Shown: in pieces, positions 34,828 to 55,900 of the stretch
Layout: each line of letters begins with the position of its first letter
How positions within the stretch are numbered: position 1 is the first letter of the stretch
Source of the DNA: an uncultured virus (IMG/VR IMGVR_UViG_3300005530_000001)
Lineage: Duplodnaviria; Heunggongvirae; Uroviricota; Caudoviricetes
Strand: one strand, 5' to 3'
DNA: 63,225 bases
IMG/VR virus record: IMGVR_UViG_3300005530_000001
Program-made: the position numbers and the translations under genes
The notes under the pieces: model-generated
The model's input: the letters and a program-made list of their open reading frames with translations, nothing else
Told to the model about the DNA's origin: nothing
Databases searched by the model: none

Positions 34828-35239
34828 CGTGGCGCGACATCATCTTGACCGAGAAGGGGATGGACTTGATGAGGTTCTACCGCGGCGATCCTGTGCGCCT
34901 CAGCGACGGGCGCGACGGGATCGTCCTGTGGTCGGAGGCCGCCGAGACCGAAATCCTGCTCAGCCCGTGGCGCCGCCAGCGCGCCCCGACCCCGAGCCTG
35001 CGGCATCTGGACCCGCCCGCCAGTTCGTCCACTTCTTCGCCACCACCGCCAGCCATCTCCCCTCCCGGCGCGCCGACACCTACCGCTGCGACTGCGGGGG
35101 GACGGACTGGGGGACGGCGAAAGCCTGGTGGCGCGAGCGCCTGAGCCTCATCGGCGGGCGGCTGCATCTCACGCTGGACAGCGGGCGCCGGGTGCCCACG
35201 GGCTCGATCGACTACGAGCACCGCGTGCGGCAGCCATGA
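34824..35239 (+). pseudogene. Apparently frameshifted hypothetical gene (shift near 35015)
   Basis: Protein-like sequence switches from the 34824 frame (...SLRHLDP) to the 34829 frame (RQFVHFF...RVRQP), whose stop couples to the next ATG. Confidence 0.45.
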
Positions 35240-36129
35240 CCTACGATCTGATCGTCACCAGCGCGGCGCGCCCGCATCTGCTGAAGGCGACGCTGGCGAG
35301 CCTCCTGGCGCAGGTGGACCAGCCGCCCGCGCGCATCCTGATCCATGACGACGCCGCCTTCGACCCGGGGACCGTCATGGCCACGCATCGCTGGATGCAG
35401 ATGAAGGCGATGCTGAGCGAACTCGTCCTGCCCTGCGAGGCGCTGTTGACGCACGCGGACCCGCCCCGGCGGCTCGGGCTGGCGCTGGTCTGGCTCCTGG
35501 CCAACGTGACGAGCGACTACGTGCTCTACTCGCAGGACGACTTCGTCACCGTGCGGGACCTGCCGATCCGGCGGGCCCTGGCGGTGATGGACGAGTACCG
35601 GGCCCACCAGATCCGCTTCAACAAGCGGGCGACCCTCGGCCAGAAGGACACCTGGCAGGGCATCTGGAAGAAGAAGGAGTTTCCCGTCTACACCGACGCG
35701 GGCGCGGCCGAGACGCTCACCGTGGCCGATCACTGGTACTTCCAGACCGGGCTCTGGCGGGTGTCTACGATCCGCGCCGCCCTGGCCTGGCTCACCGCGA
35801 CGTCGGAGCGCACGGCACTTTTCGCCGCCGCGCCCGCCGAGGAGGCGATCAACCGCGTGCTGGACGGCGAGTACGGGCCCATCCCCGGGCTCACGGTGCC
35901 GCACAACCGCTGGCAGGCGCGCGATGCCAACAACCGCGCCCAGGTCCAGCGCACCTTCATCTGGGGCCCGATCGGCACCGACCGCTACATCCGCCACATC
36001 GGCACCGACCCGGCCGACTTCGCAGGCGATCATGCGCGCGAGGACGCCGAGACCGCGCAGGGCCGCGAGAAGACCCAGCAGGCCTGGGACGAGATCGCGA
36101 CCTATCAGCCGAAGCCCCGGGAGGCGTGA
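35236..36129 (+). CDS. GT-A glycosyltransferase-like (paralog of 26416-27237)
   Basis: SAARPHLL, HDD, YSQDDF, QIRFNKR, ADHWYFQ, RHIG. Confidence 0.75.
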   Translation: MTYDLIVTSAARPHLLKATLASLLAQVDQPPARILIHDDAAFDPGTVMATHRWMQMKAMLSELVLPCEALLTHADPPRRLGLALVWLLANVTSDYVLYSQDDFVTVRDLPIRRALAVMDEYRAHQIRFNKRATLGQKDTWQGIWKKKEFPVYTDAGAAETLTVADHWYFQTGLWRVSTIRAALAWLTATSERTALFAAAPAEEAINRVLDGEYGPIPGLTVPHNRWQARDANNRAQVQRTFIWGPIGTDRYIRHIGTDPADFAGDHAREDAETAQGREKTQQAWDEIATYQPKPREA

Positions 36130-36390: not shown

Positions 36391-37104
36391 GTGGGCATCA
36401 AGAACGGCAAGGCCGCGCAGCACGTACAGTCGACGTTCGGCCCCTACCTCATGGTCCACCGCTACGAGGACCAGGCGCATATCCGCGACGTCATCGCAGC
36501 CTTCCGGCCGATGGTGGCCGTCGAACTGGGCACCGCGCACGGCGGGTTCGCCGCGATGCTGGCCCACACGCTCGGCCAGTGGGGCGGGCGGGTGCTGAGC
36601 CTGGACATCAAGCAGGACGCCGGGATCTGCGCGGCACTCGAACGCGACTACGGCAATCTCACGCTGATCGAGGCCGACGTCCTGACGGAGCCCCACGAGT
36701 TGGTGGTGGCCGCGCTCAGCCAGCCGCGCGCGCTGCTCTACACCGACAACGGCCACAAGCAGCGCGAGTTGGAACTCTACGCCCCCGACCTGCCCGAGCC
36801 CGCGCTGGTCGGCACGCACGACTACGGCACCGAGGTGGACGAGGACTGGGCCGAGCCGTTCATGGCGGCCCACCACTACCGGCCCTACCAGCATGAACGG
36901 TTCGCCGCACTCGCGAGCGACTCGTACTGGGACAGCCTGACGCGCTTCTGGCTCCGGACCCGGAGCCCCGACACGCTCACCTGGTGCATGCAGTGCCAGA
37001 CGGGCGCGCTCGCGGTGGGCCAGCCGCTCTACTGTCAGGGCCAGCACGGCGCCTGCAGCGCCTGCCTCACGCGCCTGGGGCCCGTCTGCGAGGCGTGCCG
37101 ATGA
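36391..37104 (+). CDS. Class I SAM-dependent methyltransferase with C-terminal Cys-rich tail (paralog of 32519-33079)
   Basis: VELGTAHGG, LSLDI, LYTDNG, GTHD, TRFW; CxxC tail. Confidence 0.75.
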   Translation: MGIKNGKAAQHVQSTFGPYLMVHRYEDQAHIRDVIAAFRPMVAVELGTAHGGFAAMLAHTLGQWGGRVLSLDIKQDAGICAALERDYGNLTLIEADVLTEPHELVVAALSQPRALLYTDNGHKQRELELYAPDLPEPALVGTHDYGTEVDEDWAEPFMAAHHYRPYQHERFAALASDSYWDSLTRFWLRTRSPDTLTWCMQCQTGALAVGQPLYCQGQHGACSACLTRLGPVCEACR

Positions 37105-37643: not shown

Positions 37644-38407
37644 CGACTGACCCGACGCTCCTGGTCGCGATCTACGGCGACTACGGTCCCTGGTTCGGCC
37701 CCTGGTTCGAGAGCGCGCTGGCCACGGGCCACCGCCGGTTCATCATCGTCAGCGATGGCGCCCACGAGGACACCGCGCAGCGGCTGGTCACGGCCGCCTT
37801 CGAGGGCAGCCGCGCGGACCTGAGCCGGGTGGACGACGACGCCGACTACACCGCGATGATCCAGGACCCGCGCCTGAAGCCCTACGCCTATCTGGCCGCC
37901 TGGCGCCGGGCCTTCCGCCTGCTGCCGCCCGGCGCACCGTTCGTGGCCTGCCACGTCGACACGATCCTGCAGCGCAACCTGGCCGCGGCCTGGCTGGAGG
38001 CGCGCCCGAAGCCCTTCGGGCTGGCGCTGCCCGCGGTGCGCCACGGCACCCGCTGGGTCTTCGAGCCGATCTTTCTCTGCGGCACGGCGGCGCCGGTCGT
38101 GCAGGGCGAGTTGTCGAACTTGCTGCGCGAGACCGTGCGGCTGTCCGGCAGCGCCGATCGCGAGCGGATGATGCAGGTGTACGGCTCGTTCACGGCGGGC
38201 GCCGCGGCCCTGCTCGCGAGCCGCATGCAGGAGGGTGGCGGCACCATCGTCGGACAGTTGCCCGCCACCTGGTGTAGCCGCCTCGATCCCCAGGCCGCGG
38301 TGGTCCACTTCGCGGGCCAGCCGCCCGATCCGACGACGGTGCTGGGGCAGCGCTGGGCGACGCTGGGGGACGCCTACCGGGCGCGCACCGAGGTCGTGCG
38401 GGCGTGA
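37640..38407 (+). CDS. GT-A-like nucleotide-sugar transferase (divergent)
   Basis: HVDTILQRNL (DxD variant) and C-terminal VVHFAG. Confidence 0.55.
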   Translation: MTTDPTLLVAIYGDYGPWFGPWFESALATGHRRFIIVSDGAHEDTAQRLVTAAFEGSRADLSRVDDDADYTAMIQDPRLKPYAYLAAWRRAFRLLPPGAPFVACHVDTILQRNLAAAWLEARPKPFGLALPAVRHGTRWVFEPIFLCGTAAPVVQGELSNLLRETVRLSGSADRERMMQVYGSFTAGAAALLASRMQEGGGTIVGQLPATWCSRLDPQAAVVHFAGQPPDPTTVLGQRWATLGDAYRARTEVVRA

Positions 38408-38844
38408 AGGCGCGGCTCCCGCGGCGCCGCAAGAAGTACCGCGTGCCCGGCACGCTGCGTCCGCGCGCGCTGGCCGAGCACATCGAGGAGGTCACGGGCG
38501 GCTTCCGCATCGTCAGCCACCGCACGGGGAAGAGCCTGGGGACCTACAAGACGCGCGGCGAGGCCGCGCGGGCGCTGGCGCGCATGCGGCGCTTCTCGGA
38601 GGCGGGCGTCGAGGCCCACGGCGACTGCCGCTACATCACCATCGGCGGGCGGCGCACCTGCATGACGGGCGGCCACAACCACACCGCGCTCCTCCAGGCT
38701 GGGCAGAAGCGGATGCCCTACTACGGGCTGGCCCGGCCCGGTCGGCGGCGGCGCCGCGCCTTCCCCGCCGACGTGGGGACGGCGGCGATCGGGACCGCGA
38801 CGAACATGGCGAGCGCGACCGCGCAGGCGACCGGCCACACCTGA
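38404..38844 (+). CDS. Small protein carrying one Cys-hairpin tag; in frame with the downstream polyprotein
   Basis: VEAHGDCRYITIGGRRTCM; separated from the 38869 ORF by a single in-frame TGA. Confidence 0.6.
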   Translation: MKARLPRRRKKYRVPGTLRPRALAEHIEEVTGGFRIVSHRTGKSLGTYKTRGEAARALARMRRFSEAGVEAHGDCRYITIGGRRTCMTGGHNHTALLQAGQKRMPYYGLARPGRRRRRAFPADVGTAAIGTATNMASATAQATGHT

Positions 38845-38868: not shown

Positions 38869-40851
38869 GTGCTGGGCGAGGGCGCGGTGAGCCCGTGTCG
38901 GGCCGTCTCGCTCGGCGGGCGCACGGTCTGCCTCGCGCATCTGCAGGAGTTCGCCTACGAGGCCGACTGCCGGTGGATCACCAAGAACGGCCACCGCATC
39001 TGCATCTCGCCGGGCCACGGCAACCATGCCTCCGCGCTGGGCACGGTCGACCCGGTGAGCGGCAAGCCGATCCTGCAGGTGAGCAACGACAAGGCCGTGC
39101 TCCTGGATCGCGCCCACAAGGCCGAGCCGGTGCTGGCGGGGCTGCTCAAGGAACTGACCCGGGAGAGTGGCGGGCAGGTGGTCGGCGTGCGCTCCAAGGC
39201 CGACGGCCCGCGGCTCGAACGCAAGCTCGCCAATCGCCCGGCCGCCGCGGTCTCCGATTATCTGGGCGGGCGCGTGGCGTTTCAGTCGCCCGAGGAACTG
39301 GAGAAGTTCAAGGCGCTGCTCTCGCCGCCCAAGTACCAGGTGATCGCGGACGAGAACTTCCTGAACGCGCCGAAGATCGGCTACCGCGCCGAGCATCTCC
39401 AGGTGCTGCTCCCGGGCGGGATCTCCGCCGAGATCCAGCTAGTCCCAGCCCCGATCGCGACCGTGCAGGACAAGGCGCACGCCGCCTACGAGGTGCTCGG
39501 GGAGAAGACGGCGAGTGAGGCCGACGTGCGCGCCGCGATTGCGCGCAGCGAGCAGATCTTCAACGAGTCGTGGCAGGCCGATCCGGCCTGGTCGAAGCGA
39601 ACGCTGCGGGAAGCTCAGGAGGCGACGCCGAGCCGCTTCAACGTCTCGGGCCCGGCGGGAGGGGCGACGAACACGTCACGGAGCACGAGGGAGTCGGTCG
39701 GGTCGGGGCCCCAGCCGTCCGGCCCCCACACCTCGATGACCGCGAGCCCGTCACGCGCGACGACGCGCGCTACGGTGCCATCCAGAATGCTGGGCGGGCA
39801 CATGACGTTACCAGGCATGGGGACACCACATACCCCAAGTATAGCAGGCGCGCTGGCCGAGGCGCTCCATCCCGGCGAGGTCTGCCGCTGGGTCACCATC
39901 GGCGGGCGAGCGGTCTGCATCCAGGGCCCCGCGCGCGAGGCGGCCCGGGCCCAGGACGTGGAGATCACGCCCGACAATATCCAGCAGTTCGCCGGGAGCC
40001 TGCGCCTCACGGCGGCCGACGTGCCTGACACCTGGACGATCTTCGACCGAGCCCAGTTCGATGCCTTGGGCGACCGCGGCATGCTCCTCCCCCTGGCCAA
40101 GGTGGTGAGTACCAAGGACGAACTCACCGATCCGAAGTTCCTGGCCGGGCAGAAGCCGGACCCGCGGGCGACGGTCCTGGCGCGCTTTGCGGATGCCGCG
40201 GCGGGCACGCTCGCGAAGCGGGCCCCCATCACCGTGGAGCCGCGCGACGGGCGCTACTACGTCAAGGACGGCAACGCCACCGTGCAGGTGCTCATGCTGG
40301 CGGGGCGGAGGCTCGTGCCTGCGCAGATCTTGCAGCCCGGGACCCAGCAGGAGGCCGCCGACGACTGCCACTGGGTCACCATCGGGGGCCGTCGCATCTG
40401 CATCACGGGCGGGCACAGTCACCCCGGCCGGGCGTCGGCCCCACCCTCCCCGCGGCCGGGCGCGCACGAGTCGACCCTGGTCGACCGCCTCAAGACTCCG
40501 GACGGGGGCTTTACCTACAACGCCACCGACAACAGCGAGCCCAGCCGGGGCTTCGCGGTGAGCCCCTACCCCGACCGCTCCAAGGTGTTCGCTGCCGCCA
40601 GCCTCTCGGAAGACGACCTGACGGGCTACATCGTCAAGAACTGGGACCTGCTGCAGCAGCCGGGGCACCACCTCGGCGCCTGGCACGATCCGAAGACCGG
40701 CAAGATCTTCCTCGACATCTCGGTAGTGAAGAACTCCGCCAAGGCGGCCAAGGCGCTGGCGCTCAAGCGCGACCAGATCGCCTACTTCGACCTGGGCAAG
40801 GGGGTCTCGGTTGACGTGAACCGGCAAGCCAAATCGGGGCAGGCCCCTTGA
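38869..40851 (+). CDS. Multi-effector polyprotein: RelA/SpoT synthetase-like + ParB-like + SAM-lyase-like domains, each preceded by the tag
   Basis: RSK...SDYLGGR...GYRAEH...AEIQ (SAS motifs); PITV...YYVKDGN; GGFT...GAWHD...FLDIS...DQIAYFD; four tags. Confidence 0.75.
   Translation: MLGEGAVSPCRAVSLGGRTVCLAHLQEFAYEADCRWITKNGHRICISPGHGNHASALGTVDPVSGKPILQVSNDKAVLLDRAHKAEPVLAGLLKELTRESGGQVVGVRSKADGPRLERKLANRPAAAVSDYLGGRVAFQSPEELEKFKALLSPPKYQVIADENFLNAPKIGYRAEHLQVLLPGGISAEIQLVPAPIATVQDKAHAAYEVLGEKTASEADVRAAIARSEQIFNESWQADPAWSKRTLREAQEATPSRFNVSGPAGGATNTSRSTRESVGSGPQPSGPHTSMTASPSRATTRATVPSRMLGGHMTLPGMGTPHTPSIAGALAEALHPGEVCRWVTIGGRAVCIQGPAREAARAQDVEITPDNIQQFAGSLRLTAADVPDTWTIFDRAQFDALGDRGMLLPLAKVVSTKDELTDPKFLAGQKPDPRATVLARFADAAAGTLAKRAPITVEPRDGRYYVKDGNATVQVLMLAGRRLVPAQILQPGTQQEAADDCHWVTIGGRRICITGGHSHPGRASAPPSPRPGAHESTLVDRLKTPDGGFTYNATDNSEPSRGFAVSPYPDRSKVFAAASLSEDDLTGYIVKNWDLLQQPGHHLGAWHDPKTGKIFLDISVVKNSAKAAKALALKRDQIAYFDLGKGVSVDVNRQAKSGQAP
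39615..39818 (-). CDS. Nested antisense gene (67 aa), candidate antitoxin of the RelA/SpoT domain
   Basis: MPGNVMCPPSILDGTVARVVARDGLAVIEVWGPDGWGPDPTDSLVLRDVFVAPPAGPETLKRLGVAS is globular-looking while the + frame here is an S/T/P/G-rich shadow; has its own promoter motif. Confidence 0.6.
   Translation of the reverse strand: MPGNVMCPPSILDGTVARVVARDGLAVIEVWGPDGWGPDPTDSLVLRDVFVAPPAGPETLKRLGVAS
39838..39846 (-). promoter_or_regulatory. Extended -10 promoter for the nested antisense gene
   Basis: Reverse complement TGCTATACT (TGnTAtAcT) about 20 nt upstream of ATG 39818. Confidence 0.6.
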
Positions 40852-40878: not shown

Positions 40879-41025
40879 ATGGCCGAGAAGCTGAAGCTCG
40901 TGATCGTGAAGCCGACCGCGGAAGGCGTCGCCACGCTCCTGCGCAAGCTCACCGGCAAGGAGCCGGACCTGGCGAAGATCCGCGAAGGGCTCAAGCCGAT
41001 CGCGGACACGGAGCGGCCCGCCTAG
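40879..41025 (+). CDS. 48-aa protein (not in ORF track), candidate immunity protein
   Basis: MAEKLKLVIVKPTAEGVATLLRKLTGKEPDLAKIREGLKPIADTERPA; GGAGG RBS. Confidence 0.65.
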   Translation: MAEKLKLVIVKPTAEGVATLLRKLTGKEPDLAKIREGLKPIADTERPA

Positions 41026-41053
41026 CTGCCCCACGCGTGGCGCCGGGGGCGGC

Positions 41054-41604
41054 ATGATCAGCCTGCCCGGCGCCATCCCCCTCACGCAGTCGCCCGACCT
41101 GGAGTTCCGTTTCGGGCGGGACGTGATCGCCAAGCTCGACAGCGTCACCCGTCCGGCCACCGGCCGCTCCTGGTGCGGCATTCGTGTGGTGGTCGATGAG
41201 TGCATGCCGCCCGAGGTCTGGCGGCTGTTCGCGGGCACCCGCATGGTCGCGACCAACGAGTGTCGCTCGACGCACGGGGGCGCCGGGTACGCGGCGGGCA
41301 GTGAGATCGAGGTCTACGAAGGCGAGCGGTTCGTGCGCTGCGGGGGCTGCGGCACGCGGGTGCCCTACGTGGCGGGGCGCGGGCTGTGAGCGAGGGAGCG
41401 CCACTGGAGGCGCCGATCCATCTCCGGCGCGAAGACATCGTCACGCTGGAGCAGGTGCACGCCCTCGTGGGCGATGGGCCCCCGGACGACTGGGAGGCGC
41501 GCGTCCTCGGCGCGGCCAGTCTTGATCCGCGGCGGTATCGCCTGGAGCGGCTCCACGCGCTCTGCGCGTTCCGCATCGTGCGGCGCACGGCGACGACCCC
41601 GTGA
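41054..41604 (+). CDS. Two hypothetical proteins (41054-41389; 41386-41604)
   Basis: Coupled ORFs. Confidence 0.5.
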
Positions 41605-42524
41605 GTCGCCCGCTCCGCTCCGTCCTCATCGGCGACGTCGACCACTACCCGAGCGAGTACGCCTTCGGCGTCAACCAGGCCATGACCATGGCCGGGCATT
41701 GGCACACGAGCGTGAACATCCGCCTGGACATGGGGGCGATCGCCAAGCGCGTGCGCGAGATGCAGCCCGACATCATCTGGGGGCACATGCTGCTCTGGGC
41801 CCCGGGCGATCACTACAAGACACCCGATCTCCTCGACCTCTGCGCGGCGTGGCGCAAGCGCGGCACGCGCGTGCTCCTGCACGACGGCGATGCGCGCACG
41901 GACACCCGCTGTCCGATGGACGTCTCTACCGCCATCGACCTGGCCCTCTGCAATCACCGGGCCCCGCGGACGGTCTGGCACATCCCGCAACTGCACTGGC
42001 CCTACTTCTGCTTCTGGCAGGAGGCGCGCGTCGAGCCAGTGCCGGAGTTTCAGTGCGACCTCGCCTTCGCGGGGCGTCTGGATGGCAGCGGGATCTACCA
42101 GCACCGCACCGAGTTGGTGCTGCAGTTGAAGGACAAGCTGGGCGACCGCATGAAGATCTTCCCGGGGGGTGACCAGCACACCGTCTTCCGCACGCCCGAG
42201 GTGGCGGCGAGCGCCAAGGCGGTGCTCGGCTACGGCCGCCCGGGGCGGAACGGCTGGCTCGACGTGCGCGTCTTCCAGTATCCCGGGGCGGGCGCGATCC
42301 TGCTCCACGACGACGTGGGCGAGATGCTCAAGCCCCACGCCCACTACATCCCCTACGAGTCCGGCAGTGTCGACGCGATCCTGGCCGCACTCGATCTGGT
42401 GACGAGCATGTCGGACAAAGCTCAGCACGACTTCCGGTGGCTTGCCTTCAGCTATACCCAAGCGATGCACTCGGCCTCGGCGCGCGTGAAGCAGGCGCTC
42501 GAAGCGGTCGGGCTGCACGCGTAA
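41601..42524 (+). CDS. GT-B glycosyltransferase (CgeB-like)
   Basis: CDLAFAG...YQHRTEL...ASAKAVLG...RVFQYPGAGAILL. Confidence 0.8.
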   Translation: MSRPLRSVLIGDVDHYPSEYAFGVNQAMTMAGHWHTSVNIRLDMGAIAKRVREMQPDIIWGHMLLWAPGDHYKTPDLLDLCAAWRKRGTRVLLHDGDARTDTRCPMDVSTAIDLALCNHRAPRTVWHIPQLHWPYFCFWQEARVEPVPEFQCDLAFAGRLDGSGIYQHRTELVLQLKDKLGDRMKIFPGGDQHTVFRTPEVAASAKAVLGYGRPGRNGWLDVRVFQYPGAGAILLHDDVGEMLKPHAHYIPYESGSVDAILAALDLVTSMSDKAQHDFRWLAFSYTQAMHSASARVKQALEAVGLHA

Positions 42525-45697: not shown

Positions 45698-46455
45698 CCG
45701 ACGACGCCGCCACCCCCGAGACGCCGCCCGATCCGCGCGCGGCCCTGCCCGTCCGCCGTCGCACGCGCGTGCGCGGCCGTCGCGTGCGCGCCTTCATGGG
45801 CGTGCCCGGGCTCATGCCGCGGGAGATCGACTTCCTCAAGGCCTTCATCCGCCACTACCAGCGGACCGGGCGCTGGAATGCGTCGCTGGCCGCGATCACC
45901 ATCGGCCTCTCCCCGAACGGGGCCAACACCGAGGGCCATCGCATCCTGCACCTGCCCCACGTCAAGCTCGCGTGGGAGGCCTGGATGCAGAAGGCCGACC
46001 GGGCCGCCGACATCGAGCCCGGCGAGGCCACGATCCGCCATCGCCAGCACCTGGAGGCCCTCGCCCACTCCAACATTCTCGACGGCTCCAGCCTGGTCGC
46101 GGACGAGCAAGGCAACCTGCGCTTTCAGATCCTGCCGAGCGCGCAGTGGTCGACCGCCTTCGCGCGCGCGGTGAAGCGGATCAAGCAGAAGGAGACGATC
46201 CGCACCATCGACGCGGAGCGGAATCTCACCGAGACCACGATCGAGTTGGAGTTCGAGCTACACGACAAGAACGCGGCCCTCCGGCTCGAAGCCCAGGAGC
46301 GCGGGCTCGCGAAGGGCAACAAGGTCCTCCTGCCCGACGGCACGGAGATGGAGACCGAGGGGGGTATTCACGTCTATCAGGTGAACCGCTTCGAGTTGCC
46401 CGACAACGGGCGCGGCCCGAAGCCGGTGGCCGTGGCGAATGGCGCGCCCAGCTAA
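45694..46455 (+). CDS. terS: Terminase small subunit
   Basis: FIRHY...NASLAAITIG...RILHLPHV; RAVKRIKQKE...EFELHDKNAAL; directly upstream of terL. Confidence 0.8.
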   Translation: MTDDAATPETPPDPRAALPVRRRTRVRGRRVRAFMGVPGLMPREIDFLKAFIRHYQRTGRWNASLAAITIGLSPNGANTEGHRILHLPHVKLAWEAWMQKADRAADIEPGEATIRHRQHLEALAHSNILDGSSLVADEQGNLRFQILPSAQWSTAFARAVKRIKQKETIRTIDAERNLTETTIELEFELHDKNAALRLEAQERGLAKGNKVLLPDGTEMETEGGIHVYQVNRFELPDNGRGPKPVAVANGAPS

Positions 46456-48019
46456 CCCCGCGCCACGCTCTACCTCAACTCGTCGCTCCCCACCCAGCCG
46501 CGCCAAGCGCAAGGCCGCGGTCGAAGTCTCGGTCGCGACCTTTGGCCCGCAGTCCGGGCCCCAGGAACTCTTCTTCCAGAGCCCGGCCGACATCGCCATC
46601 TACGGCGGCGCCGCGGGGGGTGGCAAGACGTGGGGCCTGCTCATCGAAGCCGCGCGCTGGCTCCGGGAGGTCTCGGGCTACGGCGCCGTCATCTTCCGGC
46701 GCACGCATCCGGAGATCCGCAATCAGGGCGGCATGTGGGATGAGAGCTTCAATCTCTACCAGGCCGCGCCGCTGTCCGGCATCCCGAACGAGACGCGGCT
46801 GGAATGGACGTTCCCGCCCTACGGCAACACGGTCACGTTCGCCCACATGCAGCACGAGCACGATCGGTTCAAGTGGCAGGGCGCGCAGATCCCGCTCATC
46901 GGCTTCGATGAGTTGACGACCTTCACCCGCGCCCAGTTCTTCTTCATGCTCTCCCGCAACCGCTCGGCCTGCGGCATCCGGCCCTACATCCGGGCCACGA
47001 CGAACCCCGACGCCGATAGCTGGGTCGCGGAGTTCATCGCCTGGTGGATCGACCAGACCACGGGGCTGCCGATCCCCGCGCGCGCGGGCGCCTTGCGCTG
47101 GTTCAAGCAGGACCCCAGCAGCGACAAGGTCATCTGGGCCGACACGGAGGCGGAACTGCTCGATCCCGACGATCCGGACAACCGCCCGTTGTCGGTGACC
47201 TTCATCCCCGCCAACGTTTACGACAACACGGTCCTCCTGGAGCGCGACCCCGAGTATCTCCGCAAGCTCATGCAGTTGCCCTACGTCGAGCGTCAGCGCC
47301 TGCTCGGCGGCAACTGGAAGATCCGGCCCTCGGCCGGACTCATCTTCAACCGCGGCTGGTTCGACATCGTGGACGAAGTGCCGCACAACGTGCTGGCCCG
47401 GGTGCGCTACTGGGACAAGGCCGCGACGCCGCCCGCCCCGCCCCAGCCCGGCAAACCGGCCAAGCGGCCGAGCAGTTCCTGGGCGGTGGGGGCTCGGCTG
47501 GCCGTCACGACCGATGGGCGCTTCTTCGTGGAAGACATCGTCCGGGGGCAGTGGCTGGCCCCGGAACGCAACCGGGTCATGCTCCAGACGGCCGAGCGGG
47601 ACGGGCACATGGTCTTCGTCTGGATCGAGCAGGAGCCGGGCTCCGGGGGCAAGGAGTCTGCCGAAATCTCGCAGGACCAGTTCAGGAAGGCGGGTATCCT
47701 GGCCGAGATCGAACGCGTCACGGGCGAGAAGGTGGTGCGGGCGCAGCCCATGTCCTGGCAAGCCGAGCAGCGCAACGTCAAGCTCGTGCGGGCGGACTGG
47801 AACGAGGCCTACCTGGCGGAGTTGGATCGGTTTCCGGACGGCCTGGCGGATGACCAGGTCGACGCGAGCAGCGGGGCGTTCAACAAGCTCGCGCGGCTGT
47901 ACGAGGAGGTCGTGCAGTACGGCTTCCAGCCGGACGACGTGGGGACCGAGATGCACGAGGCGCCGCCCGTGGTCGAGGTCGGTGATCCCATCATCGAGTC
48001 CGAGATCTTCCAGTCTTGA
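46439..48019 (+). CDS. terL: Terminase large subunit
   Basis: YGGAAGGGKT (Walker A), IGFDELT (Walker B), ATTNP, RYWDKA, EQEPGSGGK, DDQVDA. Confidence 0.97.
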   Translation: MARPANPAPRSTSTRRSPPSRAKRKAAVEVSVATFGPQSGPQELFFQSPADIAIYGGAAGGGKTWGLLIEAARWLREVSGYGAVIFRRTHPEIRNQGGMWDESFNLYQAAPLSGIPNETRLEWTFPPYGNTVTFAHMQHEHDRFKWQGAQIPLIGFDELTTFTRAQFFFMLSRNRSACGIRPYIRATTNPDADSWVAEFIAWWIDQTTGLPIPARAGALRWFKQDPSSDKVIWADTEAELLDPDDPDNRPLSVTFIPANVYDNTVLLERDPEYLRKLMQLPYVERQRLLGGNWKIRPSAGLIFNRGWFDIVDEVPHNVLARVRYWDKAATPPAPPQPGKPAKRPSSSWAVGARLAVTTDGRFFVEDIVRGQWLAPERNRVMLQTAERDGHMVFVWIEQEPGSGGKESAEISQDQFRKAGILAEIERVTGEKVVRAQPMSWQAEQRNVKLVRADWNEAYLAELDRFPDGLADDQVDASSGAFNKLARLYEEVVQYGFQPDDVGTEMHEAPPVVEVGDPIIESEIFQS

Positions 48020-48036: not shown

Positions 48037-49947
48037 ATGGCCAAGAAGCGGAGCAGTCGAGCGGCGGCCCAGCCCAGCGAGGCGGCCCTCCGCCGGGAAC
48101 TGCAGCGCGCCGAACTGGAGTTGTCGCTCACGGAGGCCAAGTACACCGCGGGCCTCATGCAGCAGTTGATGGGCGCCGAGCAGCGCCTCTCCGAGGCGCA
48201 GATGGTCATGGCCGAGCCCGAGGATCGGGGCTGGGACCCGATCTCTTCCGGCAGCAGCCTGAGCCCGAGCAAGCCCATGCTGGGCGAGAGCCGTGATAGC
48301 CAGACCCTCCGGCGGCAGATGTATCGCTTCTGGCGCTACCACGCCCACGGACGCGGCATCCTGCGCAACTTCGTGCGCTTCATCATCGGCACCGGCTTCA
48401 GCCTCGACTTCGATGACATCGACCGCGGCAACTGGACCGACAGCAAGAAGACCGCGGTCAAGATCACCACCAAGGATGACGATCCGGTCCTGGCCAATCT
48501 GATCTGGAGCGACTTCGTCAAGCGCAACGTCTTCAAGCAGCGAGCGAAGGAGATCATCCTCCGCGTCTTCCGCGACGGCGAGATGTTCCTGCGGAAGTTC
48601 GAGCGCGCGGGGCGGATCACCGTGCGCTTCGTGGAGCCGGAGCGCGTCAGCAACGGCATGCAGACCAACCTCGTGGGTACGGTCCAGGCCGGAGATCTGG
48701 AGGATGACAGCCAGGTCGGCGAACCCACGCGCGTCATGCAGGGGATCGAGTTCCTGCAGGACGACATCGAGACCGTGGTGGCCTACCACACCCAGGTCAT
48801 GGTGCCGGGGCAGGGGACGGTGCTGAAGCAGGAGCGCATCCCCGCCAAGGACATGATCCACGTCAAAGCGCTCTGCGACATGAACGACCTGCGCGGCATC
48901 CCCATGCTGGAGGTCGTGGCCAAGAAGCTCGTGAACTACGACCAGTGGGAAGAGTACCGGCTGATCCTCAACAAGATGCGCACCGCGGTGGCGCTCGTGC
49001 GCAAGGTCACGGGCACCTCCAGTCAGGCCGAGGCCATCATCGCCAACCGCATGAGCCCGCGCCAGCAGCCCCAGCGCCTGGAGCCCGTCACCGGCTCGGG
49101 CCGTCGCGAGGCCATGTTCCGCCCCGGCACCACGCTGACCCCGAGCCCGGGGGTCGAGTACGACTTCATCAGCCCGAACCTCCAGGCCCGCGATGCGGCG
49201 GAGGACGGGCGACGCTTTCTCATGTCCATCGCCGCGGGCGTGGGCCTGCCCGAGATGCTGGTCACGGGGGATTGGTCCAACGGCAACTTCGCCAGCGCGG
49301 TGACCGCCCAGACCCCCGCGGTGCGCGAGTGGGAGGACTGGCAGGAGTTCTTCGAGCCGTGCTTCCAGAAGGTCTACGAGTGGGTGATCGAGGCCGCGGT
49401 GGCGGGCCTGGGCGCGCCCGAGGACATGAGCCGCGAGGTCACCATCCAGTGGCCGCCGCTCATCGCCAAGGACGCCTTCCGCGAGACCGAGCGCCTCATG
49501 AACCTCTGGGCCTCCGGGGTGTTGAGCAAGCAGACGTGGTCGGCGCAGGAGGACCTCAACTTCGATGACGAGCAGGAGAACCTCCACGACGAAGCGGTGA
49601 TGGAGGCCGAGAACCCGGTGCCCGTGCACCAGGTCGACGTGGCGACGCTCCCGACCCGGCCGAAGGAAGGGCAGAACGCGGGGCCGTTGCCTAGCCCGAA
49701 GACCGGCAAGAATCCCTACGTGGCCGACATCCGCAGCACGATCGCTACCGCGACCGAAGCCAAGGACGCCTTCCGCGAGAGCCTGGCCCTGCTGGAGGCC
49801 GATCTGGACGGCGTTGCGGACCCCGCGTTGCGGGGCAGCCTGGAGCGCTACATGGCCACCGCCAACCGGGTGCTCGCCTTCACGGGGCGCCCAGGGAGTA
49901 CGCATGCGCCACGTCCGGCGCACCGTCGGGCGCGCGCGCGACGTTAA
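48037..49947 (+). CDS. Portal protein
   Basis: Follows terL; RDGEMF, VRFVEPE, RGIPML, AGVGLPE...GDWSNGNFASA. Confidence 0.9.
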   Translation: MAKKRSSRAAAQPSEAALRRELQRAELELSLTEAKYTAGLMQQLMGAEQRLSEAQMVMAEPEDRGWDPISSGSSLSPSKPMLGESRDSQTLRRQMYRFWRYHAHGRGILRNFVRFIIGTGFSLDFDDIDRGNWTDSKKTAVKITTKDDDPVLANLIWSDFVKRNVFKQRAKEIILRVFRDGEMFLRKFERAGRITVRFVEPERVSNGMQTNLVGTVQAGDLEDDSQVGEPTRVMQGIEFLQDDIETVVAYHTQVMVPGQGTVLKQERIPAKDMIHVKALCDMNDLRGIPMLEVVAKKLVNYDQWEEYRLILNKMRTAVALVRKVTGTSSQAEAIIANRMSPRQQPQRLEPVTGSGRREAMFRPGTTLTPSPGVEYDFISPNLQARDAAEDGRRFLMSIAAGVGLPEMLVTGDWSNGNFASAVTAQTPAVREWEDWQEFFEPCFQKVYEWVIEAAVAGLGAPEDMSREVTIQWPPLIAKDAFRETERLMNLWASGVLSKQTWSAQEDLNFDDEQENLHDEAVMEAENPVPVHQVDVATLPTRPKEGQNAGPLPSPKTGKNPYVADIRSTIATATEAKDAFRESLALLEADLDGVADPALRGSLERYMATANRVLAFTGRPGSTHAPRPAHRRARARR

Positions 49948-52900
49948 CACCCACCTCCAGGATCACTTCCTGCGCCGCGCGATGCTGCAGCGGCGCTGGG
50001 AGAATGCCGCCTGCCGGGACGTGGACACCGTCCTCAAGCAGACGACCACCGCGATCACGAGCCTCGTGCACAACGCTGGGATCTTCCCCCCGCGCAAGCT
50101 CACGCCCGCAGAGCGGCCGGGCTTCGCCTTCCTCGATCCGGTCCGCCACGACAAGCTCAAGCTCCTGCTGAGCCAGATCGCGATGACGCTGGCGCACTAC
50201 GTGCGCGGCAGCGTGGAATCGCTCCGCGGAGACCTGCGCTCCCTGGCCCAGGTCGAACTGCACCTGGTGCCGAAGGAGATGCAGGACATCCTCGATCACC
50301 ACGTCAAGAAGCACGGGCTCATGGAGGCCGCAGCCGACGACTGTCATTGGATTACCAAGAACGGTCACCGCATCTGTATTTCCGACGGGCATGCTGAGCA
50401 CGGCCACGTCGAGATAGACCCCACGCTCGCCCCGATTGCGGGGCGCATCCAGCGCGTGGTGGGTCGCCTGAACCAGAAGTATGGGCCGCTCGTTACAGCC
50501 GTGAAGTCCAGTGGCCTGACGGGAGACGTCCTCGCCCACAAAAGCAAAGACACCATCTATCTACGCTCCGATAAGGCCCTGGACACGGAGTTCTGGCGGC
50601 AGCACGAAAAGGAGTGGGCCGGACTCCGGATCGATCCCTCGCTGGAGGGTGTTCTCACCCACGAGTACGGACATGTGTTGTTCACGCGTGCCCTGAACAC
50701 TGATCCCGAACGGTACAATCAGGAGATCGCCCCGCTGGCCGCTGACACCGCCGTGGCCACCTCCGCGTATGGCCAGGAGCACTCGGTTGAAAACGAGGCC
50801 GAGGCCTTCGCGGCGATCGAAGCGGGCCGTCACGCATGGGGCCTGGAGACCGAGATGACCGGGCAGGCCATGGCGCGGGCCCGGCAGATGGTGTCGGCGG
50901 CCATGGCTATCCTGAAAGGCCAGACTCAACAGGAGGCCCTGGACGACCCCACGGCCGACGACTTCGACCCCGACCTCTACTTCACGTCCGGCCGCAAGGC
51001 GCTGATCCCGCCCGCCCCCACCCCGCTCCCCAAGATCCTGCGCGGCAGCCCGAACAGCTTCCTGACGGAACTGCTGGGCACCCCGCTCGGCGGGGCCTTC
51101 TACCAGACCTCCTTCGCCGATCTGGGCGCGAGCCTCGTGAGCGGCATCCGCAACATCCTCCTGGGCGGGCTCATGAGCGGCGAGGGCGTCGCCCCCGTGG
51201 CTCGACGGCTCCAGGGCCTGCTCGGGGGCGCCCGCTACAAGTCCGAGCGCATCGTGCGGAGCGAGTTCGGGCGCGTGGCCAACCAGGCCGCGCTCACGTC
51301 CTTCGCCCAGAACAGCGACGTCATCCAGGCCGTGCAGTGGATCTCGACGCTCGATGATGCGACGTGCTTGCAGTGCGGGGAACTGGACGCGCGCACCTGG
51401 GAGAGCTTCGCCGCCGCCCCCGTGCCCGTGGCCGACACGCATCCGAACTGCCGCTGCCGCCTGATCCCGGTGGTCAAGGGCGCCGAGGATCTGGGGCTGC
51501 CCGAGGGCACGCGCGCGAGCTTCAACGGGCAGGTGCCCGCGAGCCTCGACTACGAGACCTGGTTCGATCAGCAGGACGACGCCTTCCAGCGGGAGGTCCT
51601 GGGCCCGACCCGCTATCGGCTCTACGCCTCCGGGCAGGCCGACCTCTCCGACTTCGCCACCGCCAGCGGCGTGCGGCGCGTGCGCGATGTCCTGGCGGAT
51701 CTCGCCGAAGCCAACGTGGGGGAGTGTCACTGGATCACGAAGCACGGGCGGCCCATCTGCATCACCGGCAGCCACCTGCATCCGACCCCGCCACCGAGTG
51801 GCCCGATCCAGGCCACGCTGCCCGGCCTGCGGGACTGGACGCCCCCGACCCCCGAAGATCTGGCGCGCCAGGAATGGCTCGACGCGCAGCGGGCGGCCGA
51901 TCTGGACGCGATGCACGCGCTCTGGGCCACGCTCGACGGCACCGAGGTCGAGGTCCCGGGCCCCGAGACCTGGGCCGCGCTGACCGAGGCCCAGCAGGAG
52001 CAGGTCCAGAACGCGTGGGAAGACGCGCACGTCGAGGACTACATCGACCAGGCCAAGGAGGACTGGATCAACGACACGGGCGCGGCGGACGTCACGCAGG
52101 CGATGAACGACGACACCGATCTGCAGCGCCGCGTCGTGGAGAAGGCGCTCACCAAGGCGCTCGGCCCGGAACGCGCCGCCGCCCTGCTCGACACCGAGGA
52201 CGTCGCGGCGAACCTCCGCAGTCTGGCCGGAGGATCACTCAGCATCCGGTCGGTGGCGGGCAACGACGCGGCGACCCAGGAGGAAGCGCGCGTGATGTAC
52301 CTGGAGGCGGGCCGCCTCTGGGAGGACGAATACAACGAGCGCATCAGCGATCTGGAGGTGCCGGAAGATGTGACCCAGGGTGCCTACGAGGCGGCCTCGG
52401 AGGCCTTCGCGGGGTTGGACGACGAGTCGAAGGACGAACTCGCCAAAGCGATGTTCGGCGGCGCGCAACGGGTCGACCTCACGGCACCGGACCGTTGGCG
52501 GGTGACGCTCGATCCGCACGCGTCCGCCGAGGCGCGCGATGAATACCTTGCGACGGGCCGGATTGCGAACGCGCTGGTCGCGGCCCGAGCCGATCAGTTG
52601 TGGCGCGCCCGCTACCCGGAGGAGTCGACGCCCGATTTCCAGAACCTCGCGTCCGGCTTCTGGCGGGACTGGAAGAAGGACTCCTTCCATGAGGGCACCC
52701 TCGACATGCACCAGGCGCTGGTGCAGGAGTTGAGCGCCAACACGCGTGGGCAGGAATACGCCACCGCGGAGCGCAAGGGCATCGAGACGCTCACGCCCAG
52801 CCACGCCGACCGGGTCTACACGCGCGCCCTCTGGGATACGACCCAGTTCCTGCTCACGAAGGCAGGGGTGACCGAGATGGATCTCTACCGCTCGATCATC

Positions 52901-55900
52901 CTGCCCGCCGAGGTCGCGCACCGCGAGCCCACGCTGCCGATCACGCCTGCGGCAGCCTCCGGGTCGGGCTCGGCGGTGGATCTGCGGATTCCTCCCGGAG
53001 GCTACGTCAAATATCCCTCGCTCGCGCTGCAGCAGAATCCGGCGCAGTCGTTCACCTTCTCTGATCAGGTCGCGAACACCTGGGACGGCGTGGGCTCCTC
53101 GCCGCCGGGTGGCCAGCGGGTCGTGCTCCGCGCCAAGGTGCCGAGCACCGCGATCTGGTCGCTGCCGCTCTACGGCAAGAACATCCAGCACGAGCAGGAG
53201 GCGGTGGTGCTGGGCACGCCGTGGAAGAAGTGGGACGCCTGGATGGGCTTCGCGCCCCCGCCCGCCGTGCTGGCCCTGGAGGCGCTGGTGGAGGCGGGCC
53301 CCATGCAGCAGGACGGCACGCCCGCCCGGCCGGAGCAGTTCGTGATCGACCTGGCCAACCCCGCGTTGACCGGCGGCCAGCACTGGCTCTGGCACGGGCG
53401 GTTCGTAGACACGCAGCAGGAAGCGGGCACCGACTGCCGCTGGATCACCAAACACGGCCGCCGCATCTGCATCGCCCCGGGCCACGCCCACACCGACCCC
53501 GGCGCGACGCAGGCGCTGACGGGCCACCTCCCGGCCGCGGCCCGGTTCCTCACCGATCAGGGCTGGCTGCACGTCTCGGCCTCCCCGACGGAGGAGGGGC
53601 AACACCAGTCCATCGTCTACCGCGAACCGCAGAGCGGCGACCGGATGACCGTCTTCGCCAACGGCGACTGGGTGCACGTGTTCGCCGACGGCACGGCGAC
53701 CGAGGGCCACCGCCTCGCCGGGCTCAAGCTCCACCTCTTCGCGCGGGACTTCCTGGGGCCAACGCTCCGCGATCCCTCCGCCCAACTGGAAGCGGCCGAC
53801 GCCGAGGCCTGTCACTGGATCACCAAGAATGGCCGTCGCATCTGCATCACGGGCGGCCATACCCACGCTGCGCCCGTGCGGTTCGCGGCCTCGCTCGGGA
53901 TCGAGCGCAAGAACATGCCCCAGATCCGGGCGAAGGACATGGGGGAGTTCCTGGCCTGGGTTTCGGAGCAGGGCGTGACGATCACGCGCGAGACCGTCCC
54001 GGCCTCCAGCCTGCGCCCCGCCCAGGCGCACTACAACCCCGAGCAGGTCGCGCAGATGCAGCGCGAGAACATGACCAAGCCGCTCGTGGTCTCCCGCGAT
54101 CACTACATCCTCGACGGCACGCATCGCTGGGTGCGGTTCACCCAGGACGATCCCACGCAGGCCGTCACCGTGCTGCGGATCGATCGGCCCGCGACCGAGG
54201 CCATCGACCTCATGAAGCGGTTCCCGAAAGCGGAGGTGCAGGACATCACCGACATCGGGGCGCCCCGCGGCCGAGCGCTCGCGCCTGCCCTGGCGGAAGC
54301 CGCGGATGCCGACTGCCGGTGGATCACCAAGAACGGCCGCCCGATCTGCATCCGCCAGGGGCACGGCGAGCACGAGCGGATCGGTACCGTCGCGAGTCTG
54401 CCGAAGCGGACCTCCGTTCCCGTCACCGGGCTCGTCCAGATCTCCAAGGGCTCAGAGTCCAAGGTCTACGACGGGCGCGTCAAGGCCGGGCGCCCCGTCA
54501 TCGTCTATCGCGGAGTCGGCACCCTGAAAGAGATTGATGATGCCGTGGCCGCGGGCGCATGGGAATCGCAAGGCGACTGGGTCACCCAGTGGGAGGGCCG
54601 CACCCAGGTCGCGACGGGCCCGCTCGATCTCGCGTTGACGGCGCAGTACCCCTTCCTCGTCCAGGTGGACATCCAGGGCTTGCCGGTCCGAGCCGTGCAT
54701 TTCACCACCGGCCCGAACCGGGTGAACGTGAAGTCCGGAACCGTCTCCGGCCTGGATCACGCGATGGGCCTGGGCGTGACGGCGCCCATCCCGCTCGATC
54801 GCATCAAGAACATCTGGAGCGTCGAACGTCCCTCGCTGAAGCTCACGAGCGTCAAGTCGCTCTTCCCTACGCTCGCGCTCCAGGAGGCGGGCGAGGACTG
54901 CCACTGGATCACGTACCAGGGCCGTCGCATCTGCATCACGGGCGGGCACGCCCATGCGGGGGCGTCGTCCACCGTCGTCACCACCACCGAGGAAGCCGCG
55001 CTCAGCCCGAAGGATCGGGCGAAGTTCGAGAAGGGCCTGGCCGCCTACGGGCTCACGCGCGAGGGCATGCGGGCTGAGATCCTCGCCAAGATCTCGAATG
55101 CCGACGGCACGGTCAACGTGCAACTCCTGGCGGAAGCGCGGCACTGGTATCCCGACGCGCACGCCTTCGCCACCGATCTGATGGGCAAGGCTCCCATCAC
55201 CCTGGAACAGGCGGTGGGCGTGATCGCGGCGCTCTCGCCCCAGAATCCGTGGGAGTACAAGACCCAGTACGGCCTGGCGGGCAACAAGGTGGACGCGGCT
55301 TCCGTCGTCCGCTACTTCGCCGACCACACCGAAGATCACCAGACGCCCGCGGAACTAGCCGCGGGCGTGAAGGCGCTCTACGACCCCAACGGCCACAATG
55401 CCGACCGGCACCTGGGTCCCGGCATGCTCTCGCCCACGTCGAGCGTCGAGAAGGCGTTCTCGATCCTGCGCGACGGTTCGGCCGCCAACCTCGCCGAGCA
55501 ACTGGGCACGCTCAAGACCGCGAGCTTCTACAACAACATCCTCGCGCCCGGCCAGACGCGCGCGGTGACCATCGACGGCCACATGGCCAAGGCCATCGCC
55601 TACGCGGCGCTGGCGCAGGGCCGGGCCATGCCCAAGGACGGCCCGGGCCCGAAGGGCGAGCGCCTGGGCAGCGTCACCTCGATGATGGACGCGAAGGTCT
55701 GGGGCTCCATCGGTCACGTGCTGGTGGCGGATCAGGTCCGGCAGGTCGCCGACACCCTGCACGAGAGCCCCGACACGATTCAGGCCGCCTACTGGCTCGC
55801 CGTCCAGCCGAACAACCCGTTCAAGGGGACGTACGAAGCATGGCGCCCCGGCGCGTTCGGCTGGCGGCGCGACCAGACGGTCAGTGAGGCAGACCAGGAC

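Follow-up and report, generated by a model that had tools for sequence, protein, structure and literature searches.

Small proteins that neutralise RelA/SpoT homologue (RSH) enzymes are described from several settings. In the toxSAS toxin-antitoxin modules (FaRel, FaRel2, PhRel, PhRel2 and CapRel), a synthetase domain of the RelA/SpoT type is tightly linked to a small protein; the antitoxin gene lies beside the toxin gene in an operon of two or three genes that is conserved, some of the modules being phage-borne (PMC7229694), and the known structured antitoxins obstruct the site of either the pyrophosphate donor or the acceptor (PMC11782079). Apk2, a (p)ppApp synthetase of phage MuF polymorphic toxins, is neutralised by IapK through occlusion of its active site, with the iapK and aph1 genes located downstream of the C-terminal toxin domain (PMC12226406). 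The type VI effector-immunity pair Tas1-Tis1 combines an RSH-fold toxin with an immunity protein of about 76 aa. RelA/SpoT domains and fusions to MuF are also known from polyvalent proteins, which are giant, multidomain and encoded by invasive elements (phages and conjugative elements; Iyer et al. 2017, PMC5512222). The words 'antisense' and 'opposite strand' occur in the main text of neither PMC7229694 nor PMC5512222, and the main text of the latter contains no description of a partner gene in a nested position. Here we analyse a 63,225-nucleotide (nt) stretch of DNA from an uncultured tailed virus (IMG/VR record IMGVR_UViG_3300005530_000001; hereafter, the window), in which a 660-aa plus-strand open reading frame (ORF) with a small alarmone synthetase (SAS) domain harbours, on the opposite strand, a complete small gene for a putative immunity protein, or antitoxin, of that domain.

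The window locus resembles the toxSAS modules in the combination of a RelA/SpoT-type synthetase domain with a tightly linked small protein, but the partner is nested antisense inside the toxin ORF and has a putative promoter of its own, and no likeness to the toxSAS antitoxins was found in sequence or fold. It is not a classical type II toxin-antitoxin operon either, given that the small gene is on the opposite strand and wholly within the toxin ORF. With MuF-Apk2 it shares a phage RSH-type effector in a virion-associated multidomain protein, and the phage also encodes a MuF polyvalent protein with the same short tag motifs as the 660-aa protein; in contrast to MuF-Apk2, the synthetase domain lies within the polypeptide or N-terminally of other modules, and the putative immunity gene is antisense to the ORF and overlaps it. 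The pair is similar in makeup to Tas1-Tis1, but the structural likeness of the small protein to Tis1 is at the level of noise (VIA-align, 6ox6_B, Z 2.5, root-mean-square deviation 5.2 Å, rank 28), and Tas1 appears in the SAS profile search at E 0.18, which gives no evidence of homology. As in the polyvalent proteins of PMC5512222, the SAS domain in related loci is borne by very long ORFs, of up to at least 2,667 aa. Antisense ORFs that are fully embedded and have their own expression signals are described for pop/ompA and laoB of E. coli O157:H7 and for long overlaps of Pseudomonas aeruginosa, and in the titles and abstracts covered bacterial antisense overlapping genes are presented as evolutionarily novel or overprinted. 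The embedded gene of the window differs from these in belonging to a large family that is conserved at 38-71% GC, and its frame is apparently the better-constrained and folded one, with a disordered host frame. No nested antisense immunity gene is described in the literature searched (titles and abstracts).

The 660-aa ORF (38869..40851, plus strand) contains no internal stop over its whole length and encodes a polyvalent-type phage protein, in which a tag motif, the SAS domain (39031..39603), a linker, a second tag, a middle domain, a third tag and a C-terminal domain follow one another. The assignment as a polyvalent protein is based on the three modules split by tags and on the presence in the phage of a terminase, a portal and a MuF protein. 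The whole protein has no Pfam match at E<=0.01 and no PHROG match; four relatives (P0004-P0007) are 49-81% identical to it. From just past the ...LREAQEA sequence as far as the next tag motif, the plus translation is rich in Ser, Thr, Pro, Gly and Arg (39613..39846); the first-pass annotation of the window had remarked on Ser, Thr, Pro and Gly. The 67-aa minus-strand ORF that the annotation placed past the SAS domain lies within this linker, with its ATG at 39818 and a TGA at 39617-39615 (39615..39818, minus strand).

The minus and plus frames have their third codon positions in common, with positions 1 and 2 swapped. Over 39600-39840, the GC content of positions 1 and 2 flips to the pattern of a minus-strand gene, and this is the sole 50-codon stretch among the 13 long plus-strand ORFs of the window in which GC at position 1 minus GC at position 2 falls below -0.15. 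The overlap is also the only place in these 13 ORFs that matches the profile of the small-protein family described below (E 7.5e-22). A linker rich in Ser and Thr could by itself give a higher GC content at position 2 than at position 1, and independent evidence for the minus gene was therefore sought.

A profile of six minus ORFs from this and related loci retrieved 510 proteins at E<=1e-3, 54 of them at E<=1e-10, among 1.84 billion representatives. The members are mostly 63-100 aa long and match end to end, and the 67-aa protein of the window is 25-51% identical to 40 aligned members. The family has no Pfam or NCBIfam model. A word-index search with the 41-sequence family alignment gave nine matches, named 'hypothetical protein' at most; the same type of protein search with the 67-aa sequence alone gave no candidates, the ESM Atlas contained no usable match for the small protein, and the phage record collection had no match either to the region (BLAST, distant mode) or to the 67-aa protein (tblastn). 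Family matches in cellular genomes were uninformative (0 in five genomes; five weak partial ones, inside long frames, in 401 Actinomycetota genomes). On this evidence from its relatives, the minus ORF is a genuine gene of an unnamed, widespread family.

In the six-locus alignment of minus translations, the start Met, a pair of Trp residues and one residue each of Arg and Glu are invariant. An AlphaFold2 model from six sequences predicts with confidence a β-meander of four strands followed by two short helices (mean predicted local distance difference test score (pLDDT) 89, predicted template modelling score 0.74). The plus reading of the overlap is modelled as coil only, with pLDDT 21-29, and is the lowest-confidence part of a 371-residue model built from five sequences, which is poor as a whole (mean pLDDT 42). 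The β part of the small protein shows some likeness to single blades of propellers: the family profile matched the propeller lectin 4csd_A at an E value of 3.9e-5 summed over six weak stretches, and the top structural rows of VIA-align, with a best Z of 3.3, were propeller blades (Z 3.0-3.3). A Foldseek search of the model against PDB and BFVD returned nothing at E<=0.001.

Some members of the family occur in other forms: as three tandem copies with membrane segments (P0008), as two tandem copies (P0012), after a DnaJ domain (P0023) and before a weak match to HD_4, a hydrolase-type RelA/SpoT domain (P0109). The HD_4 match (E 1e-4; 22.5 bits, cutoff 27.2) was considered too weak to serve as functional evidence.

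Related loci were collected with the SAS domain. A metagenome scan with the SAS region yielded five further distinct loci, and in all five tblastn with the 67-aa protein, a check suggested with the first-pass annotation, found a match on the minus strand, adjoining the SAS domain directly upstream (E 8e-11, 3e-6, 4e-6, 1e-4 and 0.18). A viral scan with the SAS profile added 12 loci. Ten of these have an opposite-strand family match that adjoins the domain (E 1e-9 to 1e-25), and the other two (L050 and L051, one duplicated locus of 38% GC) have a 74-aa antisense ORF at the same place and in the same phase, with weak likeness to the family (hhalign E 3.3e-4, probability 38%). A viral scan with a seven-sequence subset of the family returned one locus. 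With duplicates counted once, the comparisons below cover 14 distinct loci: the window, L028, L029, L030, L031, L032, L039, L040, L041, L043, L044, L045, L046 and L050.

The two frames are uninterrupted in every one of the 14 loci, which range from 38 to 71% GC, and the small gene is fully overlapped in each by a plus frame that reads through it, as had been claimed for the window. The overlap-bearing plus ORFs are from 396 aa to more than 2,667 aa long (at least 808, 1,312, 2,101, 2,641 and 2,667 aa in the metagenome loci). An open partner frame is not rare in itself. Along true genes of the window, the frame in this phase is open over 68 codons in 18% of the segments sampled, and the chance is 0.12-0.41 per locus in six loci. 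For any single high-GC locus it would hence be plausible that only the minus gene codes and that the plus frame is open by chance between two separate plus-strand genes. We regard this explanation as barely credible for the set of loci: the chance product for six loci is 1.1e-4, the partner frame was open by chance in 0 of 544 segments in the 38%-GC locus, no plus-strand stop or restart is found, and the plus frame is open in 14/14 loci within ORFs of up to at least 2,667 aa.

The composition of the nested proteins also speaks against chance. In this phase, Tyr, His and Gln codons are the sole minus codons able to put stops in the plus frame, and the nested proteins contain one such residue in 450, compared with 8.6% in the plus-strand proteins of the same loci. 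The small protein therefore appears to be shaped by the need for an open polyprotein frame. The same scarcity is seen more widely in the family: among the 150 matches listed, 39 of the 92 members of at most 110 aa are without any Tyr, His or Gln, with a mean of 1.9% against a background of 8.6%. A large share of the family may thus be encoded antisense inside other ORFs, where standard annotation does not see it.

The relative constraint on the two frames was assessed with substitution scores and third-base changes instead of the ratio of non-synonymous to synonymous rates suggested with the first-pass annotation; that ratio does not discriminate in this phase, in which nearly all synonymous and non-synonymous sites are common to the two frames. 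The minus translation outscored the plus translation of the same DNA in all 15 locus pairs, with about twice the score, whereas in each of two 70-codon control blocks from the SAS domain the plus frame won 15 of 15; the pairs share phylogeny and are not independent, and no P values are given. At third-base changes in split codon boxes, the residue was kept in 61-64% of cases in the minus frame of the overlap and in 51-55% in the plus frame, compared with 72% (plus) and 34% (minus) in the SAS control. Because these rates exceed the 34% of the control partner frame, both frames of the overlap are under constraint, and the minus frame more so. The minus frame predicted for the window is thus the better conserved of the two in homologous loci, besides having a widespread family.

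These results bear on the converse possibility that only the plus frame codes, for a low-complexity linker, and that the minus ORF is its high-GC shadow. Antisense frames that share third positions are indeed often open in DNA of 70% GC (the 18% of 68-codon segments given above), and linkers rich in Ser, Thr, Pro and Gly also yield a GC excess at position 2 over position 1. A shadow would leave unexplained the better conservation of the minus frame in every pair, with the reverse in the control, the invariant Trp, Arg, Glu and start Met residues, the pLDDT of 89, the 510 relatives and the persistence of the arrangement at 50% and 38% GC, and we consider it highly improbable. We conclude that the overlap is very probably dual-coding, on grounds of comparative sequence analysis. 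Of the two readings, the folded minus frame probably came first, and the plus linker would simply be what results when the polyprotein is read across it.

The nested gene adjoins the SAS domain in every locus. In 14/14 distinct loci, a family member or look-alike ORF is antisense to and next to the domain, the family assignment being weak for L050/L051. The side varies: the gene is upstream of the domain in 13 loci and in P0007, and downstream in the window and in P0004-P0006. Accordingly, the linker segment is kept at the same place in three of the four relatives of the 660-aa protein (P0004-P0006), and in P0007 it is absent downstream, while a look-alike (44% identity over 59 aa, E 2e-6) precedes the SAS domain. 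As the gene stays next to the domain and yet is found on its other side in the window clade, it moves as a cassette, which is what the first-pass annotation had proposed for the toxin and its partner. An invertible segment was considered and rejected: the interval 39615-39846 is not bordered by inverted repeats, and all loci have the gene in one and the same orientation with respect to the SAS domain.

The near-consensus extended -10 element that had been reported about 20 nt upstream of the ATG was found at 39846-39838 on the minus strand (TGCTATACT, TGcTATACT; 39838..39846), ending 19 nt before the start codon and leaving a short leader (39819..39837, minus strand). With both strands included, the pattern TGNTATA[AC]T has a single occurrence in the 63 kb of the window, the one in front of the nested gene. 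In 10 of the 14 loci a TANNNT hexamer is found at precisely this distance, its end 19 nt ahead of the start codon, and in 9 of 14, the window not among them, GGAGG or GAGG ends 8 nt before the ATG. A two-hexamer promoter (-35, 17 nt, -10) with at least 9 of 12 matching positions is present at this site in L028, L029, L031, L032, L039, L040, L041 and L046; it is unique on its strand of the 5-9 kb locus in L031 and L028, and the better of two in L029 and L032. The plus codons that lie under the -10 include uncommon ones, both in the high-GC loci (ATA, 1.8-3.1% of Ile codons; AGG, 9-10% of Arg codons) and in the window (AGT, 5.4% of Ser codons; ATA, 0.8% of Ile codons). The window cassette keeps its -10 at 19 nt despite the different plus-strand context on the downstream side of the SAS domain.

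Two loci show variations of the start region. L045 has no -10 at the 19-nt spacing, but TGcTATAAT occurs on the same strand some 100 nt ahead of its minus ATG (2457), and its start site may differ. In L039, an IMG/VR contig, ATC occupies the start position of the nested gene, with a promoter match (TCGACA, 17 nt, GATAAT) in the usual place; the nested gene there likely starts at the next codon, GTG.

Promoter elements conserved at a fixed place would also be expected if the antisense promoter or its RNA were the functional element, acting by transcriptional interference or antisense control, with only incidental translation of the ORF; antisense transcription is common in bacteria according to the abstracts covered. 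Such an element would not account for a frame of 65-100 codons that is open in 14/14 loci and comes with a conserved Shine-Dalgarno sequence and ATG, nor for the better conservation of the minus amino acids, the confident fold and the 510 protein relatives, and we consider this very unlikely.

The domain next to the nested gene is a divergent member of the RelA_SpoT synthetase family, as judged from profile comparisons. The profile of six homologues matches solved RelP/RelQ-type GTP pyrophosphokinases and RelA chains (best E 8.7e-9), and five of the six sequences match Pfam RelA_SpoT (PF04607; best E 4.3e-10). Residues R54, K56, K65, S75-D76-Y77, R81, G117-Y118-R119, H122, E134 and Q136 are invariant in the six sequences. 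The basic R-x-K motif, the Asp of D-x-x-G-x-R and the E-x-Q motif are kept, presumably in their catalytic and substrate-binding roles. Together with the G-Y of the G-loop, they align with the equivalent motifs of chain 6fgk_A; a role of the G-loop Tyr in RSH synthetases is described in PMC7229694.

The SAS domain and the small protein were modelled as a complex, a check also suggested with the first-pass annotation. The interface score ipSAE was 0.81 (0.84, 0.63 and 0.81 in separate runs), compared with 0.03 for the best of three controls; this level is reached by 116 of 157 solved complexes and by 2 of 215 mismatched pairs, counts that are rough here since the models use our own alignments. 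The runs agreed in at least 83% of contacts, with a partner pLDDT of at least 81. The modelled interface includes the invariant residues K65, S75, D76, A120, H122 and H150 and the following helix, and corresponds to the nucleotide-binding cleft. We infer from the models that the small protein binds over the active-site region of the SAS domain.

We propose that the product of the nested gene is an immunity protein or antitoxin that inhibits the SAS effector domain, and assign this reading a probability of about 60%, on the strength of the linkage and the modelled complex. The first-pass annotation had read the locus in this way, and those parts of its interpretation that can be checked by computation were each supported. 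The small protein would act as a cognate inhibitor that covers the nucleotide-binding cleft. Host RNA polymerase would transcribe its gene from the gene's own promoter of the sigma-70/sigA type, independently of the structural-gene transcript, so that the SAS domain could be kept inhibited in producing cells or lysogens, or turned off once the genome has entered; protection of the lysogen against kin phages is another possible role. The antisense location may reflect the situation of a domain in the middle of a polyprotein, which has no adjacent intergenic space, and nesting would keep effector and antidote inseparable during the shuffling of modules.

Strict linkage and a predicted complex would suit any obligate partner, and the product might bind the SAS domain without inhibiting it, as a chaperone for folding or packaging, an activating or specificity subunit, or a target adaptor. 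The resemblance of the β part to a propeller or lectin blade, an interaction module, and the fusion of one family member to DnaJ are compatible with such a role. We judge it unlikely: the interface covers the catalytic-motif residues S75, D76 and H122, as those of known inhibitors do (PMC11782079), and a separate promoter on the opposite strand is more what one would expect of an antidote made at another time than of a subunit needed in stoichiometric amounts.

Somewhat less probable still is a gene that has no connection to the enzymology of its neighbour and lies where an antisense frame happens to fit, with a function in the protection of lysogens against the SAS domains of related phages or an unrelated early function. 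The constitutive appearance of the sigma-70 promoter and the other associations of the family (tandem copies, membrane anchors, DnaJ) would be in keeping with this. An independent gene would not be expected to adjoin the SAS domain in 14/14 loci, even after relocation, or to be predicted to bind its cognate domain, and even a gene that protects against the effectors of kin phages would confer immunity to an SAS domain.

Several observations weigh against inhibition of the SAS domain by an independently transcribed nested gene. Toxicity of the window SAS domain is assumed, and the window copy of the domain alone has no PF04607 match at E<=1. The promoter evidence is uneven: the 19-nt-spaced hexamer is absent from 4 of the 14 loci, neither a recognisable -35 nor a Shine-Dalgarno sequence accompanies the window copy, and a sigma-70 scan of 39300-40200 that required two hexamers returned no promoter. 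In loci of the upstream type, the promoter and the Shine-Dalgarno sequence overlap conserved SAS residues, and their conservation may in part come from the plus-strand protein. Four metatranscriptome runs contained short unstranded contigs on 39189-39567, 40195-40345 and 40892-41049, and none on 39583-39855. The fold and complex results are models on our own shallow alignments, and genomic context was read for the 14 loci, in a family with about 500 other members. The small-protein family may be a general binding module, given the likeness to lectin blades and the fusions to DnaJ and membrane segments. The small protein also has no detectable likeness to known RSH inhibitors, either to Tis1 in VIA-align, as given above, or to any in the PDB profile search, which listed lectin blades only; for the same reason, the complex score is unlikely to stem from the model's memory of solved complexes.

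A broader and more tentative proposal is that nested antisense immunity genes are a general, ancient design of phage polyvalent effectors. A free-standing immunity gene with its promoter would have been captured in a polyprotein ORF, whose linker would now be the translated reverse complement of that gene, and the pair kept dual-coding in phages of 38-71% GC, with the cassette hopping around the toxin domain. The antidote, made early or in lysogeny, would serve as a timer that turns off the injected SAS effector after genome entry, or would protect lysogens against kin phages. We think this possible but doubtful; if true, the antidote would be an early or lysogenic product expressed from a host-type promoter.

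To our knowledge, only a small number of long antisense overlaps between protein-coding genes have been put forward for prokaryotes and their phages; they are disputed, and most of them are young and restricted to particular lineages. The present overlap is among the clearest comparative cases of sustained dual coding, with a large family, a confidently predicted fold, a putative promoter and ribosome-binding site of its own, and an occurrence in 14 diverged phage lineages. It suggests a way in which a toxic domain in the middle of a polyprotein may carry its antidote, and it provides a new candidate family of inhibitors of RelA/SpoT-type effectors. Partners of this kind are missed by gene callers that forbid nested antisense genes.

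The window itself comes from a high-GC tailed phage, as judged from its gene content and composition: GC is about 70%, and the genes with the expected codon-position GC pattern are nearly all on the plus strand. The large terminase is at 46439-48019, a lambda-type portal at 48037-49947 and a 2,372-aa MuF-domain protein at 49814-56932. An IMG/VR contig of the same phage, 99.98% identical, starts at window position 40195 and does not reach the overlap. At least 90% of the sampled words of 39000-40400 are present in 16 DNA runs from several soil and rhizosphere studies, so the window sequence is not the one-off product of an assembly; an assembly artefact was rejected on this ground and because relatives have the arrangement in common.

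The tags that delimit the modules of the 660-aa protein have the pattern C-x-W-[IV]-T-x-x-G-x-x-[IV]-C-I...G-H (C-x-W-I-T-x-x-G-x-x-I-C-I ... G-H in the first) and are located at 38968..39006, at 39883..39921, immediately past the overlap cassette, and at 40366..40404 (all plus strand). With the wider pattern C-[HR]-[WY]-[IV]-T-x-x-G-x-x-[IVT]-C-[IM]...G-H, the window contains 11 copies of this module-boundary tag on the plus strand, namely these three, one at 38626-38664 and seven in 50342-56056. Four are thus in the genes of the 38.4-40.9 kb region and seven in the 2,372-aa MuF protein. Glu-Ala together with acidic residues is found upstream of all 11, and the motif has no Pfam match. The tags could be processing or packaging signals common to cargo proteins. 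The tag at 38626-38664 belongs to a 146-aa ORF (38404-38844, plus strand) that is in frame with the 660-aa ORF and separated from it by a single TGA (38842-38844); the two ORFs may be separate genes, or they may be joined by read-through.

Relatives of the C-terminal module of the 660-aa protein (40470-40851, plus strand, residues ~535-660, containing a W-H-D-P-x-T-G motif) are present at 28-50% identity in numerous viral contigs (loci L010-L026) and in genomes of Microbacteriaceae and Arthrobacter, including a Microbacterium plasmid. The genome-contig scan and the first viral scan returned relatives of this module only. Its distribution points to an actinobacterial host range for the module. 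On either side of the polyvalent ORF, weak matches to glycosyltransferases and methyltransferases, mostly below the Pfam cutoffs, were found at 35128-36129, 36391-37104 and 41601-42524 (plus strand); these flanking genes are possibly DNA- or surface-modification genes.

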